From Candidatus Heimdallarchaeota archaeon B3_Heim (lineage in GTDB: Archaea > Asgardarchaeota > Heimdallarchaeia > Hodarchaeales > Hodarchaeaceae): a stretch of 32,000 bases of DNA. The notes beneath the pieces were generated by a model that had not been told where the DNA came from, ran no database searches, and saw only the letters and a program-made list of their open reading frames with translations. The translations under genes and the position numbers were made by a program. Below, piece after piece: positions 2,539-9,856 of the stretch. Location of the stretch: assembly GCA_003144275.1 (NCBI GenBank), contig NJBF01000012.1, positions 1 to 32,000 on the forward strand. The letters run 5' to 3'. Within the stretch, counting starts at the first letter, position 1. Each line of letters begins with the position of its first letter.

Positions 2539-3126
2539 TTACCGATTTCGGTTCATATACCGATCGAAAAAGAAACCTCCAAAAAGAAAGACAGCTAATT
2601 CAAAGAAGAAGGATCCATGTTCGGGAGGAATACCTTCTAATCTGCTAAAGAAAGCAGATACCGAATTTCCCAGTAAATTACCAATGGTAATCATTTCACA
2701 AAATACTATGATATCTCGTCCTGTTTCTAAACCGTATTCTCCCAGTAACGCACGAATAGATTGTTTAGAGGGTTGGCCAGCCGATTCAGCATAATGTTGG
2801 GCAAAAACCAAAGCCAATTTTTCTTCAGGTGGGAATTCACCATATTCCTGAACGAGTAAGGCGTGTATCTCATCCAACGTGCTGCCTGCTTGAAGAGCGA
2901 AGGTAGTATGTCCCCATTCACAATAAATACACCCGTTAATCCCGGTAACCACTAGCATAAGATGTTCACTGAAATTCTTTGAAACCCGATCTGATTGATG
3001 GGCATTACGGAGGTACTTTCGGTGTCTAATTATTCTTAGTACATCCGTAAAAAAAGTTCTAAAAGTATAGGAGCGTTTCTTAAAGAACTTAGAAGGATGG
3101 TTATACGATCGAGAGTGCTTGTGCAT
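2539..3126 (-). CDS. Carboxymuconolactone decarboxylase / AhpD-like family protein
   Basis: INGCIYCEWGH motif (CxxC...H of AhpD/CMD); EKLALVFAQHYAE helix pattern. Confidence 0.85.
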   Translation of the reverse strand: MHKHSRSYNHPSKFFKKRSYTFRTFFTDVLRIIRHRKYLRNAHQSDRVSKNFSEHLMLVVTGINGCIYCEWGHTTFALQAGSTLDEIHALLVQEYGEFPPEEKLALVFAQHYAESAGQPSKQSIRALLGEYGLETGRDIIVFCEMITIGNLLGNSVSAFFSRLEGIPPEHGSFFFELAVFLFGGFFFDRYMNRNR

Positions 3127-3217
3127 AATGATACCTACAAGTAAATTCCAATAATGATTGACCCTTTCAATATTATTCTTTCATTCACACTTGAGTTTCA
3201 AATGTGCATTTCGGAAA

Positions 3218-3694
3218 TTATCTGGGGGGATAGTTCCCCAATGCGAGTACGAATATTGGTGGTTCTTTACGAATACCCAAAAACCATTTCCATCTTTCAC
3301 GATCGAGAAAAAATGAAAGAATGGATATCATTGCCTGTAAAATAGCACCAAAGAGGCCAAAAATCACCCATGCCGCAAAAATTCCCAGAGTTGCAGAAAA
3401 GATTTCTACAAGTATACGTTGCCACCCTTGAACCATTTTTCCATGAGGTTTTTTGTCACCGGGAAAATTAAACTGACTCAGAAGGAAGAGACTAAGTCCT
3501 AATAAAATTAAATATACCCATGAAGGAAAAATCTTGCGATCATGGGAACTAAGTAACGAAATCCCAATTGATTCTATTCCTAGAAGCAGTAACCAGATCC
3601 AAGTAGAGAATTCCACTACAAATCGCATAATTGGAGCTATATGAAGGGTATCACGAATTTCAGCCATAAATGGTCTCTCCTGAAGAGCATTCAA
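3218..3694 (-). CDS. Hypothetical membrane protein (about 4 TM)
   Basis: 158-aa ORF filling the gap, with several hydrophobic segments; no family recognised. Confidence 0.65.
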   Translation of the reverse strand: MNALQERPFMAEIRDTLHIAPIMRFVVEFSTWIWLLLLGIESIGISLLSSHDRKIFPSWVYLILLGLSLFLLSQFNFPGDKKPHGKMVQGWQRILVEIFSATLGIFAAWVIFGLFGAILQAMISILSFFLDRERWKWFLGIRKEPPIFVLALGNYPPR

Positions 3695-3809
3695 TTATAT
3701 GAAAGTTCTTTTACTTCTGTTTTTGTGTAATTCACTTAGATTTACGTAGAATACCTCTGGTTAGAAAGGTAAATGATAATTTAAACTTCCACTTCATTTT
3801 GGATACCTC

Positions 3810-4721
3810 ATGAAAAATAGCCCTCTTGGAATGGATGGAAAAAACTGCATTATTACAGGAGGAAATAGAGGGATTGGTAAGCAGGTTGCTACAGAAATTG
3901 CAAAAATGGGTGCTAATATCGGAATAATTACCAGAAATCGAATAAAAGGAGAGAAAGCAGTTAATGAGATTATTTCCGACTCGAAAAACAATCAAATAAC
4001 ACTTTTTGTGACGGATATTGCTTCTCAAGAGCAACTAAAGCAATTGTCAAAGGAAATTCAACAGAAATTCTCCCACATAGATGTCTTGGTTAATAACGCA
4101 GCAGTGCTATTAAGGAAAAGAGAGGAGACAGAAGATGGCATTGAGAGAACTCTAGCTACCAATCATCTTGGGCCATTCTTATTAGTAAACTTATTATTCA
4201 AGACATTGGAAAAATCTAAATCTGCAAGAGTAATCAATATCAGTTCTGATGGACACAGAAAAGCGGAAATTGATATAGAAGATCTAAATTATACAAAAAG
4301 GAAATATAGCGGTTTTAAAGCATATTATCAATCTAAGCTACTCAATTTACTATTCACCTATGAATTAACTAGTAGAATTGAATCATTATCGTCCAGTATT
4401 ATTTTAGTAAATGCTCTAGATCCTGGAAGAGTCAATACAGACATAGGGAAGAATTATGATACTGTTTCTTATCGTATCTTCTCCAAATTAATCCGGCCCG
4501 TTATTTCAATTTCAGTGCATCAAGGAGCCGAGACACCAATTTATCTTGCCACTTCTCGAGAAGTTAATGGAGTCAGTGGAAAATATTTCATTAATAGAAA
4601 AATTAGTAAATCTTCCAGGCTCTCTTATGATAGGCCCTTGCAAAAGAGCGTTTGGAAGCTTAGTGAAAATTATGTAGGAATTAATTCAGAGGATTATGGA
4701 GTAGGAGATTCTATTGAGTAA
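3810..4721 (+). CDS. SDR family NAD(P)-dependent oxidoreductase (retinol dehydrogenase/WWOX-like)
   Basis: TGGNRGIG Rossmann motif, VLVNNAA, NHLGPFLL, catalytic YYQSK. Confidence 0.95.
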   Translation: MKNSPLGMDGKNCIITGGNRGIGKQVATEIAKMGANIGIITRNRIKGEKAVNEIISDSKNNQITLFVTDIASQEQLKQLSKEIQQKFSHIDVLVNNAAVLLRKREETEDGIERTLATNHLGPFLLVNLLFKTLEKSKSARVINISSDGHRKAEIDIEDLNYTKRKYSGFKAYYQSKLLNLLFTYELTSRIESLSSSIILVNALDPGRVNTDIGKNYDTVSYRIFSKLIRPVISISVHQGAETPIYLATSREVNGVSGKYFINRKISKSSRLSYDRPLQKSVWKLSENYVGINSEDYGVGDSIE

Positions 4722-6297
4722 AAAACCAATTTATTCGTTATTACTTGGAGGAGTAGTTCTTTTTGGTAGTTTAACTTTAATATTCAGTGTTTTTTATTTA
4801 ATGAATGCTATTTTTCTCATTATTAAAGCCTACCGATCTTCAAACATAATCACTATTCTTTTTAACATAAATCATTTTGTAATTGAAGTAATTTTAGGCT
4901 TCTATACTTTATATATTGTCTTTATTTTATTTCATGCATTAAAATTTAGAAAAGAGGAAAATCTGACTGATATTTATCCAATAGTAAATGATGCTTTTCC
5001 TACTGTTTCAATCATAATGCCTATCCGAGGGATTAGTCCTTCATTTGTGGAAAATAGCATTAAACAACTTCAAAACCAGTCTTACCCTTCAAAAAAGTAT
5101 GAAATTCTTTTAGCTACAAATAATCCAGAAAATGAAGTCCTAAATTCCTATCGTGAGCTTGCAGAAACATATAGCTTAAGAATAATTGAAAGAGATCCAA
5201 TAGCAATCGGGTTCAAAGCAGGAGTGATGAATCAAGCACTACATTCAATTGAAAGTAAATATACAATTATATACAACGCTGATCATATAGCAAGGTCTTA
5301 TTTAATTGAAAAACTAGTAAATGCGTTTGAATCTTTATCTCCGGATGAATTCAAGCAAACAGCATTTATTCAAGCTAAGTCAACGTTTACTTCTGGTAAC
5401 GAACCATATCAACGATCAATCAGCCTTCTAAGAGCCCAAGTTTTTGAAGTATATTATCGTGCCAAACATAGGTGGAAGGGTTCATTATTTAATGGTTTTA
5501 CTTGTTGTTTTCAAACAACAATTCTAAATAAGATAGGTGGTTTCCCTCTTGAAACTTTGACAGAGAACAATGGAGTCTCGATTAAACTCCTACTTGAGGG
5601 ATATCATGGTATATACATTCCAACACTTCTTTCTATTGGAGACACCCCTCAAGGTTTTAATTCTCAATTAGCACAATTGTGGCGATGGAATAACGGAACA
5701 GCATCACATCTGAGAAGTAATTTTTGGCCGATAATTTCTAATAACAATTTATCTTTTACACAAAAGTATGATTTAATTTGTTATTTGTCATCACCCCTGA
5801 TCCTGTTAGTAATTGGAATATTATTTCCTTGCTCACTTTTTCTATCTTTATTCACTGAATTACCGATTTTAAGAGCTGAAATACCTGGAATAGGATCATT
5901 ATTTTTGATTATACCTGGATTATTTGTAATAGCTGAAATGAGTATAACTCTTATGAGTATTGCATTTGAAGAATCGAATCATACAAAGATTGAGCGAATG
6001 AAACACATTGCTGTTTCATATTTCCTATCTTTGACAATAGCAATATTCATTATCACAGCCTCTATCAGAGGAATTGCAAAACCGAAAAACGCGTTGAATC
6101 CGAACATAAAATGGAATATAAGTTATAATAGGAAACTATTTTTTGGTTATCAAAGTTCTTTACTGCTTATTACTGGGATTGCATTTAGTAAGCTTCTCTC
6201 TATCAATAATGATATGATTTTTCTATATCTTACATTCATATTGAGTTATGTAATTGGATTATCTCTCTCAATCTATTCAAATCTAAAATCATGGTAA
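4714..6297 (+). CDS. GT2 cellulose-synthase-like membrane glycosyltransferase-fold protein with degenerate catalytic motifs
   Basis: TTG start overlapping the SDR stop by 8 bp. PTVSIIMP, GFKAG, FNG...IGGF and QLWRW match the GT2 layout; about 2 N-terminal and about 5 C-terminal TM helices. The Asp motifs read NN, NAD and TEN. Confidence 0.85.
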   Translation: MSKKPIYSLLLGGVVLFGSLTLIFSVFYLMNAIFLIIKAYRSSNIITILFNINHFVIEVILGFYTLYIVFILFHALKFRKEENLTDIYPIVNDAFPTVSIIMPIRGISPSFVENSIKQLQNQSYPSKKYEILLATNNPENEVLNSYRELAETYSLRIIERDPIAIGFKAGVMNQALHSIESKYTIIYNADHIARSYLIEKLVNAFESLSPDEFKQTAFIQAKSTFTSGNEPYQRSISLLRAQVFEVYYRAKHRWKGSLFNGFTCCFQTTILNKIGGFPLETLTENNGVSIKLLLEGYHGIYIPTLLSIGDTPQGFNSQLAQLWRWNNGTASHLRSNFWPIISNNNLSFTQKYDLICYLSSPLILLVIGILFPCSLFLSLFTELPILRAEIPGIGSLFLIIPGLFVIAEMSITLMSIAFEESNHTKIERMKHIAVSYFLSLTIAIFIITASIRGIAKPKNALNPNIKWNISYNRKLFFGYQSSLLLITGIAFSKLLSINNDMIFLYLTFILSYVIGLSLSIYSNLKSW

Positions 6298-6375
6298 ATC
6301 TTGTAACAAGGTGTAATTAATCAAGCATAAGAATTTACTTGACTAATCAATCTATAAATCCTTATTTTTATTGGC

Positions 6376-6864
6376 TCAAGTCCCATCTTGCCAAATTACA
6401 TCTTTCCAGGTCATATCAAAAACATCATCTTCAGTTAAAGTCAAATCCTTAATTATTAGATCATACAGCCATTTTAATAAAGCATGATGTCGAAGTTCAT
6501 CTTTTAGAATAGTTTTTACCAACATCTTCTCCCGAACATCAACAATCTGACTTAACATCTGACGGTATGTATCTATGGCTGTTTTTTCCAGTCGTATATG
6601 TGTTTCGATACTTTGTTTCAGTTCTTCCCGCTCTTCCTCCGAGATCAAGCGAATTCCTTTCGTGCTTTTTTCCTGAAGAGCAGTTAACCCTCTCAAAATT
6701 GATTCATGTTTTTTATTATCTTGGCTTATACCAAGAATTAATTCTTTGATGAGAATATTTTTAACCCTGCTCACTGAAGCTTCCGCAGCTTTAATAATTT
6801 CTTTTTCGAGCTTAATTTGTTGACTGTAAAATTCAGTATTGCTTAATGCTTTTCTTTTCAACAT
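6376..6864 (-). CDS. Ferritin-like (rubrerythrin-fold) di-iron protein
   Basis: Four-helix pattern with E, D-x2-KH, E and DELRHH ligand-like motifs. Confidence 0.75.
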   Translation of the reverse strand: MLKRKALSNTEFYSQQIKLEKEIIKAAEASVSRVKNILIKELILGISQDNKKHESILRGLTALQEKSTKGIRLISEEEREELKQSIETHIRLEKTAIDTYRQMLSQIVDVREKMLVKTILKDELRHHALLKWLYDLIIKDLTLTEDDVFDMTWKDVIWQDGT

Positions 6865-6889
6865 TACAACTTCCTGTTACATCCAAGTT

Positions 6890-7357
6890 CTATTCATAAC
6901 CTAAAAAATTACTCAACAGGATTCCCACTAAATCATACACCCAGTCCAATGGAACATCAAAAACCTCTGCCCAAAATTGTTCTGATTTTGATTCTTGTAT
7001 CATGAAAGTCAAGAGCTCAAATGGTTCCCACAAAAATCCGTAAATAACCATAGTAAGAATGGAAGCGACCAGCCGTGGGTGATCATTGGCATAAGAATGG
7101 TTAATGCGCAAGATTAGGGAATAGCATATTCTGAGAATAATCATCGAAGAAAGTAAATGGAGAATTTTGTCATAAGAGAAGAGAGAGTACTGTAATGGTT
7201 CAAATTCGAGAAATTCTTTATTGAAGAAATTCCCTAGTGTAAGAATGCTAACTATAACAATCGCGAACAACAATATGCGATCATTTCGTAAAACACGATA
7301 GAGCTCCATTACGGAAGTTGTTACTTTCTGTCGATTAATTTCCATACTGAGTGACAA
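6890..7357 (-). CDS. VanZ/DUF2238-like small membrane protein
   Basis: YDKILH, LWEPFE and DWVYDLVG motifs within TM helices. Confidence 0.6.
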   Translation of the reverse strand: MSLSMEINRQKVTTSVMELYRVLRNDRILLFAIVIVSILTLGNFFNKEFLEFEPLQYSLFSYDKILHLLSSMIILRICYSLILRINHSYANDHPRLVASILTMVIYGFLWEPFELLTFMIQESKSEQFWAEVFDVPLDWVYDLVGILLSNFLGYE

Positions 7358-7470
7358 TTAATTTGGAATTAATTAAATATTGTGTTTCTGAATAACCAAT
7401 TAACTGTGTAAATTTGTAAAAAAAAATAACTTAGTTCGTTTTCACATCGGATTATTGGTTTTATTTTTGG

Positions 7471-8658
7471 TTATTTGCTCTTATTTAACGTTTCAAGCTG
7501 ATTTATCCTATAAAATAGGAACATGGCAATAATTGTTCCAAGGAATGCTATCAAAAGAAGCGGACCATAACCAATAATTGAGAAAAGAAATCCTCCTATC
7601 GCTGCGGTAGGAACCCACCCAAGTCGCTGGAAAAATGACAAAATCCCAAAATTTGTGGAAGGAATAGAGGGATCAACCGCGATAAGGCTGATTGTAACAG
7701 CAGGCCTCCAAAAAGCTATACTTACACCTAAGATTGCATGACCAATAAGGAGAAGAAGTTCAGAATCTACAGGGTTCATAATTGCGAGTTGTACACAGGC
7801 AATGAACATAATCCCTGTGATCTCACCTAAAACTAACCCGACTATTCTACCAGCTCTATCCACAATATATCCCGCTGGATATTGCAGGATTACTAGAAAA
7901 ATGGATTCATAGAGAACAAGAGTCGCAATAAAACCTACATCGACTTCAAAAAGCAAGATGAAAATTCCATTAGCTATTGAGAGGGGTAAACCCCAAGCAA
8001 AGGAGTCTATAACGAAAGCAAATACAGTAAGACGAGAAATAGGCTCACTAAAAAGATTCTTTAATGAAAAATTTACCCTAGATATATTGGGCTTAATATC
8101 TGATAACAGGAAAAAATTCATTACTAGAATTACTAATAAAGAAATACTCCCAAATTGAAAAAAAGTAATGTAGCTGTTATTTGTCTCAAGCAGAACTGCG
8201 GCGATTATTCCCGCAATCGACCCTGAATTGTAAATAACTGCATAAACTAACCCACGATTTTTCTCTGCTGTTGATTCATATATAAGCGTGTTTAGTGGGG
8301 AATCTTGAACACCTAGTCCAATATTAAACAAAATAATACTAAAAATCATTAGTAATAAATGTGTTTTATCCAGAGATAATCCCACCAACCCAATAAAACT
8401 CAAAAATTCCCCCAAAAGTATGATCTTCTTCCTCCCGTGGGTATCAGCATAGAAGCTAAATAACAAAGGGATTATTGCAAAAAAACTACCAATAGAAAGA
8501 ATAGCTCCAAGAATTTGAGCAATTTGATCACTTTCTCCATACACCTCAATAATATATGGCTGGATCTGAATTGAAAAAATAATATTGGCAAAACCCCAAA
8601 GAAAATAAGTAGCAATTAGCGTGAGTATGTTTAATGTTGCAGGTCTCGTAGATTTCAT
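7471..8658 (-). CDS. MFS transporter
   Basis: About 12 TM helices; motif A variants ADTHGRKK and GYIVDRAGR. Confidence 0.92.
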   Translation of the reverse strand: MKSTRPATLNILTLIATYFLWGFANIIFSIQIQPYIIEVYGESDQIAQILGAILSIGSFFAIIPLLFSFYADTHGRKKIILLGEFLSFIGLVGLSLDKTHLLLMIFSIILFNIGLGVQDSPLNTLIYESTAEKNRGLVYAVIYNSGSIAGIIAAVLLETNNSYITFFQFGSISLLVILVMNFFLLSDIKPNISRVNFSLKNLFSEPISRLTVFAFVIDSFAWGLPLSIANGIFILLFEVDVGFIATLVLYESIFLVILQYPAGYIVDRAGRIVGLVLGEITGIMFIACVQLAIMNPVDSELLLLIGHAILGVSIAFWRPAVTISLIAVDPSIPSTNFGILSFFQRLGWVPTAAIGGFLFSIIGYGPLLLIAFLGTIIAMFLFYRINQLETLNKSK

Positions 8659-8728
8659 CCTGAATCAACAGCTTGAGTATTATGAGTCGCTCAGGGTAAT
8701 ATCTGAGCTTTTTTTCCAATAAGTGTTG

Positions 8729-9856
8729 TCAGGACGCTGTTTCTGGTTTTGCTTTTTCAAGATACATATCGATTACAGCCAAACACGCCCCAAGAACAGC
8801 TCCGATGGCATCCCAAACCAAATCTTTAGGGGCGTCGAGTATTTCATCAATGAAATGACCAAGGTTTAGAAGGGCATTTGTGATCCACTCGAAAATTTCC
8901 CATGCAAGTCCTAAACTAATCATAAAGGCAATCGCTACAACAATACCAAACAATTTTGCTGATGTACTTTCGGCTCCATAATTTGCAAACTGATCAGTTA
9001 CGATGTAGACAATTAGCATGGTGATAGCTGCACTCGTTAAACCATGTGCTATTTTATCAAAAGCAATCCAAGAGTTAATATCAGTAAAACCTGTTCCCCA
9101 TTGACCTTTGCCATAGAGCTCGTAGGGCAAGTGTCCGACTGCATGGAAAATACTTACGCCGATTAAAAGTACCAGGAAAGCAGTTCGGTCTAATGCGAAT
9201 GAAACAAAATCCTCAGCAAATTGTTTTCCAGGCCTTAGGCGAACATAAATCACATAGATGAACAATATTAGGATTGCAGTATCTTGAATAACGGCAAATC
9301 CTCCATAAGTTGATAACGCTGGAAGATCTTCAACAGGGACAGTAGGATAATAGGCTTGCAAATTTGGCTCTCTCAAAAAATACAGGGGACCATCATCGGG
9401 GTACGTCAAGAGGTTGAAAAACCAAATAATACCAAAAATCACTGATCCTACGAACAAGATAAAGAAGTTTCTATCTGTAACAAGGTTGGTTTTTATTGCT
9501 TCAGTAATAGTCTGTTCAAATCGTCGAGGTACACGTAAATGAGGATCCAAGAGAGTATTGATGAAACCATATACCACCAGTACCAAACCCACTAAAAAAA
9601 TAACCCATCCAATGACTATACCTACATCTCCTACGAATTGCATTGTTTTAACACGATTTACATCACTCGTCCAATCTGGACGTAAATCTATGGGAAGTTT
9701 CAACTCTGGAGGATAGCGCATTTGAACGAAAAATTGTAACATTAATAATGAAATGAATATAAGAATCAATCCCATCCCTAGTATTCGTAATTTCAATCGT
9801 CTCTTCTTTACTTCGACTTCACTTAGTTCATCCAAGTTTTCTGTAATCCTCTTCAC
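8729..9856 (-). CDS. Multi-TM protein with C-terminal VanZ/DUF2238-like domain
   Basis: GTG start, about 9 TM helices; FDKIAH, LAWEIFEW and DLVWDAIG motifs shared with 6890..7357. Confidence 0.7.
   Translation of the reverse strand: MKRITENLDELSEVEVKKRRLKLRILGMGLILIFISLLMLQFFVQMRYPPELKLPIDLRPDWTSDVNRVKTMQFVGDVGIVIGWVIFLVGLVLVVYGFINTLLDPHLRVPRRFEQTITEAIKTNLVTDRNFFILFVGSVIFGIIWFFNLLTYPDDGPLYFLREPNLQAYYPTVPVEDLPALSTYGGFAVIQDTAILILFIYVIYVRLRPGKQFAEDFVSFALDRTAFLVLLIGVSIFHAVGHLPYELYGKGQWGTGFTDINSWIAFDKIAHGLTSAAITMLIVYIVTDQFANYGAESTSAKLFGIVVAIAFMISLGLAWEIFEWITNALLNLGHFIDEILDAPKDLVWDAIGAVLGACLAVIDMYLEKAKPETAS

Follow-up and report, generated by a model that had tools for sequence, protein, structure and literature searches.

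The D,D,D,QxxRW signature is textbook knowledge for membrane family 2 glycosyltransferase (GT2) synthases, such as those that make cellulose, chitin and hyaluronan. What becomes of such a synthase when the Asp residues are replaced but the gene stays intact? The question is raised by a gene at positions 4714-6297 of the plus strand of contig NJBF01000012.1 from Candidatus Heimdallarchaeota archaeon B3_Heim, within the 32,000-nucleotide stretch of DNA that was analyzed here and is referred to as the window. A preliminary description had proposed that all of the key Asp motifs in the encoded protein read Asn, that these were parallel D-to-N changes in an intact gene under selection for a non-catalytic role or altered chemistry, and that the gene was coupled to an overlapping short-chain dehydrogenase/reductase (SDR) gene. 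A non-catalytic or altered role remains the best reading, although both the set of losses and their history differ from those first envisaged. The sequence comparisons suggest, with somewhat better than even confidence, that catalysis is dead or strongly attenuated in this synthase paralog, and that the protein is retained to bind a ligand or to serve as a scaffold or channel component.

The gene has the following overall layout:

4714-6297, plus strand: GT2 synthase-like membrane protein of 527 amino acids, with two N-terminal transmembrane (TM) helices, a GT-A domain (~residues 95-345) and a C-terminal TM bundle

Re-reading of the sequence bore out the coordinates and codons of this open reading frame, which runs for 527 codons from a TTG start with zero internal stops. 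The N-terminus of the protein aligns with the ATG start of its closest ortholog, designated P0003. GT2 profiles of Pfam matched above their gathering scores but weakly, namely PF13641 Glyco_tranf_2_3 (39.1 bits, cut-off 27), PF13632 Glyco_trans_2_3 (32.0 bits, cut-off 27) and PF00535 Glycos_transf_2 (26.8 bits, cut-off 23.3). The NCBIfam matches to CelA/BcsA and PgaC were all sub-threshold, with 81.3 bits against a cut-off of 699 for TIGR03030 CelA and 65.9 against 992 for PRK11498. An AlphaFold2 (AF2) model was built from a 15-sequence alignment (pLDDT 85, pTM 0.87) and was compared with known structures using VIA-align. Escherichia coli BcsA (9fnn_A, residues 191-693) superposed with a Z score of 29.1 and a root mean square deviation of 3.2 Å over 468 residues, and Rhodobacter sphaeroides BcsA (4p00_A) with a Z score of 27.6 over 475 residues; Foldseek matched the model to BcsA at 2e-20. 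The next structural matches were hyaluronan synthases (HAS; Z ~24), plant CesAs and the archaeal PcManGT. The model has a GT-A domain fused to a TM channel bundle, which indicates that the protein is a membrane-integrated, synthase-type GT2.

In BcsA structures, the Asp of the DDG motif binds uracil, the DxD motif and the following His hold the metal and the diphosphate, the Asp of TED is the proposed general base, and QxxRW binds the diphosphate and the acceptor sugar. The register of these motifs in the GT2-like protein was taken from three agreeing alignments: phmmer with R. sphaeroides BcsA, a hidden Markov model (HMM) profile with E. coli BcsA, and MAFFT/HMM with the relatives. Motif states were tabulated over 182 collected proteins, and residue conservation was counted against 33 intact Asgard relatives. 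The sites are as follows:

5116-5124, plus strand: T135 N136 N137 replacing DDG (E. coli BcsA ILDDGG over LATNNP; Thr135 codon 5116-5118)
5215-5223, plus strand: K168 A169 G170 (KAG), kept; invariant in alignment A1
5275-5286, plus strand: N188 A189 D190 H191 replacing DxDH (IYNADH over BcsA VFDADH)
5512-5514, plus strand: Q267, opposite the first Arg of BcsA LRRR; this position is Arg in 32 of the 33 intact relatives
5560-5574, plus strand: T283 E284 N285 N286 G287 replacing TED-x-D (ETLTEN over BcsA ETITED)
5674-5688, plus strand: Q321 L W R324 W325 (QxxRW), kept; QLWRW over BcsA QRGRW, with Q, R and W invariant in A1

The TEN sequence at 5560-5568 aligned with TED of BcsA as had been proposed, such that Asn285 stands in place of the proposed catalytic base, a residue that is Asp in all 33 intact Asgard relatives. 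The Asp two residues further on also is lost and is now Gly287. The first motif had been described as a DD pair changed to Asn-Asn (5119-5124). No Asp is left there, but that register was one residue off: the conserved Asp, found in 31 of the 33 intact relatives, is replaced by Thr135, and Asn136 is the next residue. Reading of the DxD site as NAD (5275-5283) was in the correct register, but only the first Asp is changed, to Asn188, whereas the metal-binding Asp190 and His191 are kept. Thus, the statement that all Asp motifs read Asn holds for TEN and for the first Asp of NAD, but not for the first motif, which reads Thr, nor for the second Asp of DxD. The alignments and the AF2 model agreed with the earlier account that KAG, the FNG motif (F259-G261), QLWRW and the TM layout are retained. 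In sum, the first Asp, an intact DxD and the Asp of TED are all absent from the protein, and QxxRW is present. Asp310, which is conserved in the three closest members of the group, was considered as a compensating acidic residue. It was rejected as a clade-specific gain because bacterial relatives carry Glu at this position beside an intact TED.

How the losses arose was traced in relatives of the GT2-like protein, which is designated P0001. A word-indexed search of 5.8 billion proteins retrieved P0003 (70% identity, from a Hodarchaeales metagenome-assembled genome, MAG) and P0004 (48%, from a Promethearchaeota MAG) as the only close relatives. When 1.84 billion representatives were searched exhaustively with an HMM built from P0001, P0003 and P0004, the additional matches were a 196-residue fragment (P0036), the sister pair P0034/P0184, many intact Asgard GT2 synthases, and a second TEN-bearing pair that comprises P0045 from a Heimdallarchaeota MAG and P0056/P0183 from a Kariarchaeaceae MAG. 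Among the 182 proteins, TEN was confined to P0001, P0003, P0004, P0045 and P0056/P0183. These five proteins, all from Heimdall-group Asgard MAGs, have open frames of 469-539 residues in their five genomes at identities of <30% to 70%. In a maximum likelihood tree of 24 sequences (LG+C20+F+G4) the five were monophyletic (ultrafast bootstrap 94, SH-aLRT 90) and grouped with P0034/P0184 at 100/99 support; the tree contained long branches.

The motif states differed within this group. The first-motif Asp is T, G or A in the TEN clade, with G-K/A-K in P0045 and P0056/P0183, and S in the sister pair, in which it is the only Asp lost (SSNS, with DSD and TED kept). The extended TED motif is TENNG or TENSA in the clade. 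Compared with the 33 intact relatives, the clade also has substitutions at Arg267 (to Q or K), at Tyr240 (R here) and at several further positions. QL[WY]RW, KA[GR] and FNG are kept in the TEN proteins and in P0034/P0184. At DxD, P0045 and P0056/P0183 read DSY/DGY, with the metal-binding Asp lost (D190Y). Asn188 is private to the B3_Heim genome, as the orthologs P0003 and P0004 read DADH; codon 188 is AAC in the window and GAT in each of these, a difference of two bases. Asn285 is shared by both orthologs, Asn188 by neither. The motif pattern is not a product of chance: all 33 intact relatives have the TED Asp, 31 of them have Asp135, and TEN occurs in one small clade only. The simplest history suggested by these states is stepwise: the first Asp would have disappeared in the common ancestor of all seven proteins and TED changed to TEN once, after which DxD would have been hit independently, by N188 in the B3_Heim genome and by D190Y in the P0045/P0183 subclade. 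The proposal of parallel D-to-N changes does not quite fit this stepwise order and the restriction of N188 to B3_Heim.

Selection on the gene was assessed by codon alignment with the P0003 gene, which gave dN 0.176, dS 0.80 and dN/dS 0.22 by the NG86 method, and dN/dS 0.19 by YN00. The GT domain was the most constrained region (dN/dS 0.157), compared with 0.31 for the N-terminal and 0.27 for the C-terminal TM parts. Against P0004 dS was saturated, with dN/dS ~0.24. Codon 285 is AAC in the window and AAT in the P0003 and P0004 genes, a synonymous difference that preserves Asn. By comparison, an intact paralog in the same genome, described below, gave dN/dS of 0.08-0.10 against congeners over dS of 0.13-1.2. 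The TEN copy therefore is under clear purifying selection, as the preliminary description had supposed of an intact gene, but this selection is relaxed approximately two-fold relative to the intact paralog.

These values bear on whether the gene might be a recent pseudogene still without stops, in which the motif changes are neutral damage. The elevated dN/dS relative to the intact paralog, the private status of N188, and the accessory distribution of the gene (it was not found in the 21 congeneric species genomes searched, and is cleanly missing from the closest) all would suit such early decay. However, the frame is open in five genomes, dN/dS is 0.22 at a dS of 0.8, Asn285 is kept via a synonymous change, KAG, FNG and QxxRW are invariant, and the gene has a Shine-Dalgarno (SD)-like motif and a conserved start. 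Plain decay is ruled out by the dN/dS value and by the fact that the orthologs and the second subclade share both TEN and the absence of the first Asp; early decay is largely refuted and very unlikely. Errors of sequencing or assembly also could in principle have created the Asn residues, at least N188, since the genome is a 103-contig MAG (3.95 Mb, 94% complete) and matching metagenome contigs did not reach positions 5275 or 5566. Nevertheless, N188 is not a single-base error because AAC differs from GAT at two bases, and both TEN and Thr135 recur in independently assembled orthologs from other samples. An artifact is extremely improbable.

The B3_Heim genome contains two further GT2 synthase genes, one at C8:70253-71722 and one on contig C57 that specifies a bacterial-type TED enzyme. 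The C8 paralog (509 amino acids) has intact SDNG, DSD, IEDID and QLWRW motifs and is 28% identical to the GT2-like protein (E 2e-47). A counterpart, 27-31% identical to the GT2-like protein, was found in 19 of the 21 congeneric species genomes searched, and all 15 congener copies in which the motifs were read were of the intact type. The C8 gene (G000:C8; L004:39-3651) is directly downstream of genes for a sugar-phosphate nucleotidyltransferase and a polyprenyl synthetase fragment, with an endonuclease dU gene adjacent. From this gene content, it is plausible that the C8 locus is an operon for the real envelope glycan synthase of the genus.

On the favored reading, the GT2-like protein would have started as a paralog of the BcsA/HAS-type synthase that nearly all members of the genus hold. 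The Asp of DDG that binds the nucleotide base (now Thr135) would have been lost first, followed by the TED base (Asn285), the Asp two residues on (Gly287) and a conserved Arg (Gln267), and finally, in B3_Heim alone, by the first Asp of DxD (Asn188). Such a protein presumably no longer would polymerize sugar at a useful rate, but would be retained for a task that depends on the membrane part and on a folded GT domain. Most probably it would be a regulatory, scaffold or channel subunit that binds a glycan chain, a lipid-linked sugar or a nucleotide-sugar, perhaps beside an intact synthase encoded elsewhere in the genome as a hypothetical partner. In B3_Heim the gene travels together with that for an intact RDH14-like SDR, in an accessory cassette of 2.6 kb. 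Efficient transfer appears to have been given up because D135, D285, D287 and R267 were lost together, DxD is not uniform in the clade, and an intact paralog coexists. That the protein still would bind something and do a job is suggested by the fold, TM bundle, KAG, FNG and QxxRW, which are kept under purifying selection.

Several points weigh against this reading. Glu284 of TEN is retained. In Arabidopsis, a CSLD3 TEA mutant retained some function in vivo, but a TAA mutant retained none (bioRxiv 10.1101/2023.04.25.538313), so that Glu284 might serve as a weak base. None of the diphosphate and metal ligands (K168, D190, H191 and R324) is missing, and constraint is strongest in the GT domain; this also would fit a working enzyme with altered substrates. 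Moreover, the gene is accessory, and therefore any role is dispensable. A different explanation is that the protein is an active glycosyltransferase with altered chemistry. Glu284 or water would serve as a slow base, or the acceptor would be a phosphate or carboxylate (e.g., polyprenyl or dolichyl phosphate) that needs no base; the Thr-Asn motif would signify a different donor nucleotide, and the co-inherited SDR would have the task of modifying the lipid or sugar substrate. The preserved K168, D190-H191, Q321/R324/W325 and FNG residues, the constraint on the GT domain, the residual function of CSLD3-TEA, and the intact catalytic motifs of the translationally coupled SDR are all consistent with this possibility. 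Against it stand the joint loss of D135, R267, D285 and D287, a dN/dS approximately twice that of the intact paralog, the long branches, and an SDR pairing that is not conserved. Furthermore, no single donor or metal site is conserved across the clade, because one TEN subclade lacks the metal-binding Asp (DSY/DGY) and B3_Heim lacks the first Asp of DxD. Altered chemistry is the main alternative, which we regard as possible but doubtful.

The setting of the gene comprises three features:

3751-6362, plus strand: two-gene accessory cassette of 2.6 kb (SDR and GT2-like genes), between two minus-strand genes
3810-4721, plus strand: classical SDR oxidoreductase of 303 amino acids, RDH14/PRK06197-like, with TGGNRGIG, NNAA and S-Y-K intact
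4698-4721, plus strand: coupling junction, with GGAG/AGGAG SD-like motif (4698-4707), GT2-like TTG start (4714-4716) and SDR TAA stop (4719-4721)

The SDR matched Pfam adh_short (2e-32) and, below its cut-off, NCBIfam PRK06197 (6e-62), and TGGNRGIG, NNAA, NISS and YYQSK were all found in its translation. No close ortholog of this SDR was found anywhere searched: the best identity was 47%, that of the top-scoring match was 46%, and those of congeners were 43-44%. In two SDR homologs from congeneric genomes, at G003:C64:14114-14977 and G005:C162:18253-19122 (L029 and L031), the frame contained one in-frame TAA each, and in-frame TAA may be recurrent in this Hodarchaeales genus via read-through, recoding or decay. 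The TTG start of the GT2-like gene is located 6 nt past the AGGAG/GGAG motif and overlaps the SDR gene by 8 bp, an arrangement from which the GT2-like gene is probably co-translated with the SDR. A predicted complex between the two proteins scored 0.00, a value that was obtained without controls and that is evidence neither way.

The cassette was compared with the corresponding locus in G013, the closest congener searched, whose intact paralog is 97% identical in protein sequence (dS 0.135). On G013 contig C14, a match to positions 3225-3748 of the window (69%) was followed after a gap of ~8 bp by a match to 6363-9665 (97%), and both cassette genes were missing. Positions ~3751-6362 therefore are a clean 2.6-kb two-gene indel relative to G013. 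To the left of position 3225 synteny with G013 is gone, and positions 128-1225 map to another G013 contig at 86%; the cassette is located at a recombination or plasticity boundary. On the right, an MFS transporter gene (7471-8658) is flanked by three minus-strand genes (6376-6864, 6890-7357 and 8729-9856); one product is rubrerythrin/ferritin-like, and the other two are membrane proteins that match DUF2238 weakly and below threshold.

Three DNA sequencing runs, two from marine metagenomes and one from marine sediment, matched the region, each with only 5-10% of its sequence words. Their low-depth contigs contained pieces of the region that were 95-99% identical. Codons 188 and 285 were outside the coverage of all contigs. 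No RNA run was present among the sequencing runs that matched the region. The SDR/GT2 pair exists in related strains elsewhere, because two of the metagenome contigs bridge the SDR/GT2 junction. A P0034-type copy was found in one genome of another family of the same order. P0034 itself (L035:1-4854) is located beside genes for EAP30 (ESCRT-II-like), Band_7, PCI-like, Arf/Ras small GTPase and Roadblock/LC7 proteins, a eukaryote-signature cluster.

A shared neighborhood was sought around five clade members (L001, L002, L033, L034 and L035), and none was found among them. P0003 is flanked by genes for an aldehyde:ferredoxin oxidoreductase and cysS, P0045 is followed by a methyltransferase gene, and P0183 abuts the gene for an NDH-2-like flavoprotein. 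The stop of the P0004 gene (L002) is overlapped by the start of an extended-SDR gene (2747-3760; NAD-dependent epimerase/3-beta-hydroxysteroid dehydrogenase family). The product is unrelated to the SDR in the window (BLASTP E 14), and with it a further Rossmann oxidoreductase, of separate ancestry, is coupled to a member of the TEN clade. Thus, the proposed coupling to the SDR is real in B3_Heim, as judged from the 8-bp overlap, the SD-like motif and the two-gene indel, but the pairing is not conserved across the clade.

A more speculative extension of the favored reading, which we consider unlikely, is that the TEN clade represents a membrane-embedded 'reader' derived from a polysaccharide synthase. 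The reader would bind a nucleotide-sugar, dolichyl-phosphate-sugar or nascent glycan via the KAG/QxxRW/FNG pocket without transfer. In B3_Heim, the co-translated RDH14/DHRSX-like SDR would receive this ligand from the reader or be anchored by it at the membrane. Together, the two would form a mobile two-gene module that oxidizes or reduces a lipid-linked or polymeric sugar. If so, it would be a pseudo-synthase/oxidoreductase system without described counterpart.

Pseudo-glycosyltransferases already are known in other families. In the literature searched on Asgard cellulose-synthase-like proteins and GT2 pseudoenzymes, neither a TEN clade nor Asgard pseudo-synthases were found described, and a natural TEN clade of BcsA-type synthases is new to that literature. 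The clade provides a natural experiment on what the fold does without catalysis, whether substrate sensing, channel function or scaffolding, and on whether Glu of TED can replace Asp as the base. Its hosts are Heimdall-group Asgard archaea, which attract interest because no other archaea are as closely related to eukaryotes, and about whose envelope and glycans very little has been learned. There also is a consequence for annotation, as genes of this type currently carry the simple label 'glycosyltransferase' or 'cellulose synthase-like' and would wrongly be counted as active synthases.

Compared with known systems, the GT2-like protein shares with BcsA the whole-chain fold of GT-A domain and TM channel bundle (Z 27-29, 468-476 residues aligned), as well as KAG, the second Asp and His of DxDH, the FxG loop and QxxRW in equal register. 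Unlike BcsA, to which it is ~17% identical, it has Thr for the Asp of DDG, Asn for the first Asp of DxD and TEN for TED, ends past the TM bundle without a PilZ domain, and lacks the FxVTxK/RTPK gating-loop motif (F.RTPK in the bacterial-type relatives in alignment A1). The intact Asgard paralogs, which include the C8 copy, P0005-P0009 and P0037 (a 'Candidatus Hodarchaeum mangrovi' glycosyltransferase), are equal to it in length, topology and family, have identical QLWRW, GFKAG and FNG motifs, and likewise are confined to Asgard archaea. In contrast, they keep SDNG, DSD and IEDID and evolve at dN/dS of 0.08-0.10.

EXT1/EXT2 and GtfB-type partners provide examples of non-catalytic, GT-like subunits. 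The GLT25D1 protein has an inactive GT domain (PMC12987934). As in these cases, the GT2-like protein keeps the GT fold with loss of catalytic residues, and may have a binding or scaffold role beside an active glycosyltransferase. However, their GT families and architectures are different and include no membrane-integrated BcsA-type synthase, and the partner in B3_Heim is hypothetical. The substitution at the proposed base itself has counterparts in plant synthases of the same superfamily, where residue D683 of CesA8 is presumably the Asp of TED. The D785N change in the TED Asp of AtCESA6 slowed movement of the cellulose synthase complex and allowed only partial rescue (PMC10291031), and irx1-1, which is CesA8 D683N, causes collapsed xylem (PMC4897727). 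Although the substitution is equal, these plant proteins are laboratory or mutant alleles with loss-of-function phenotypes, whereas in the archaeal proteins TEN is wild type and is conserved throughout a natural clade.

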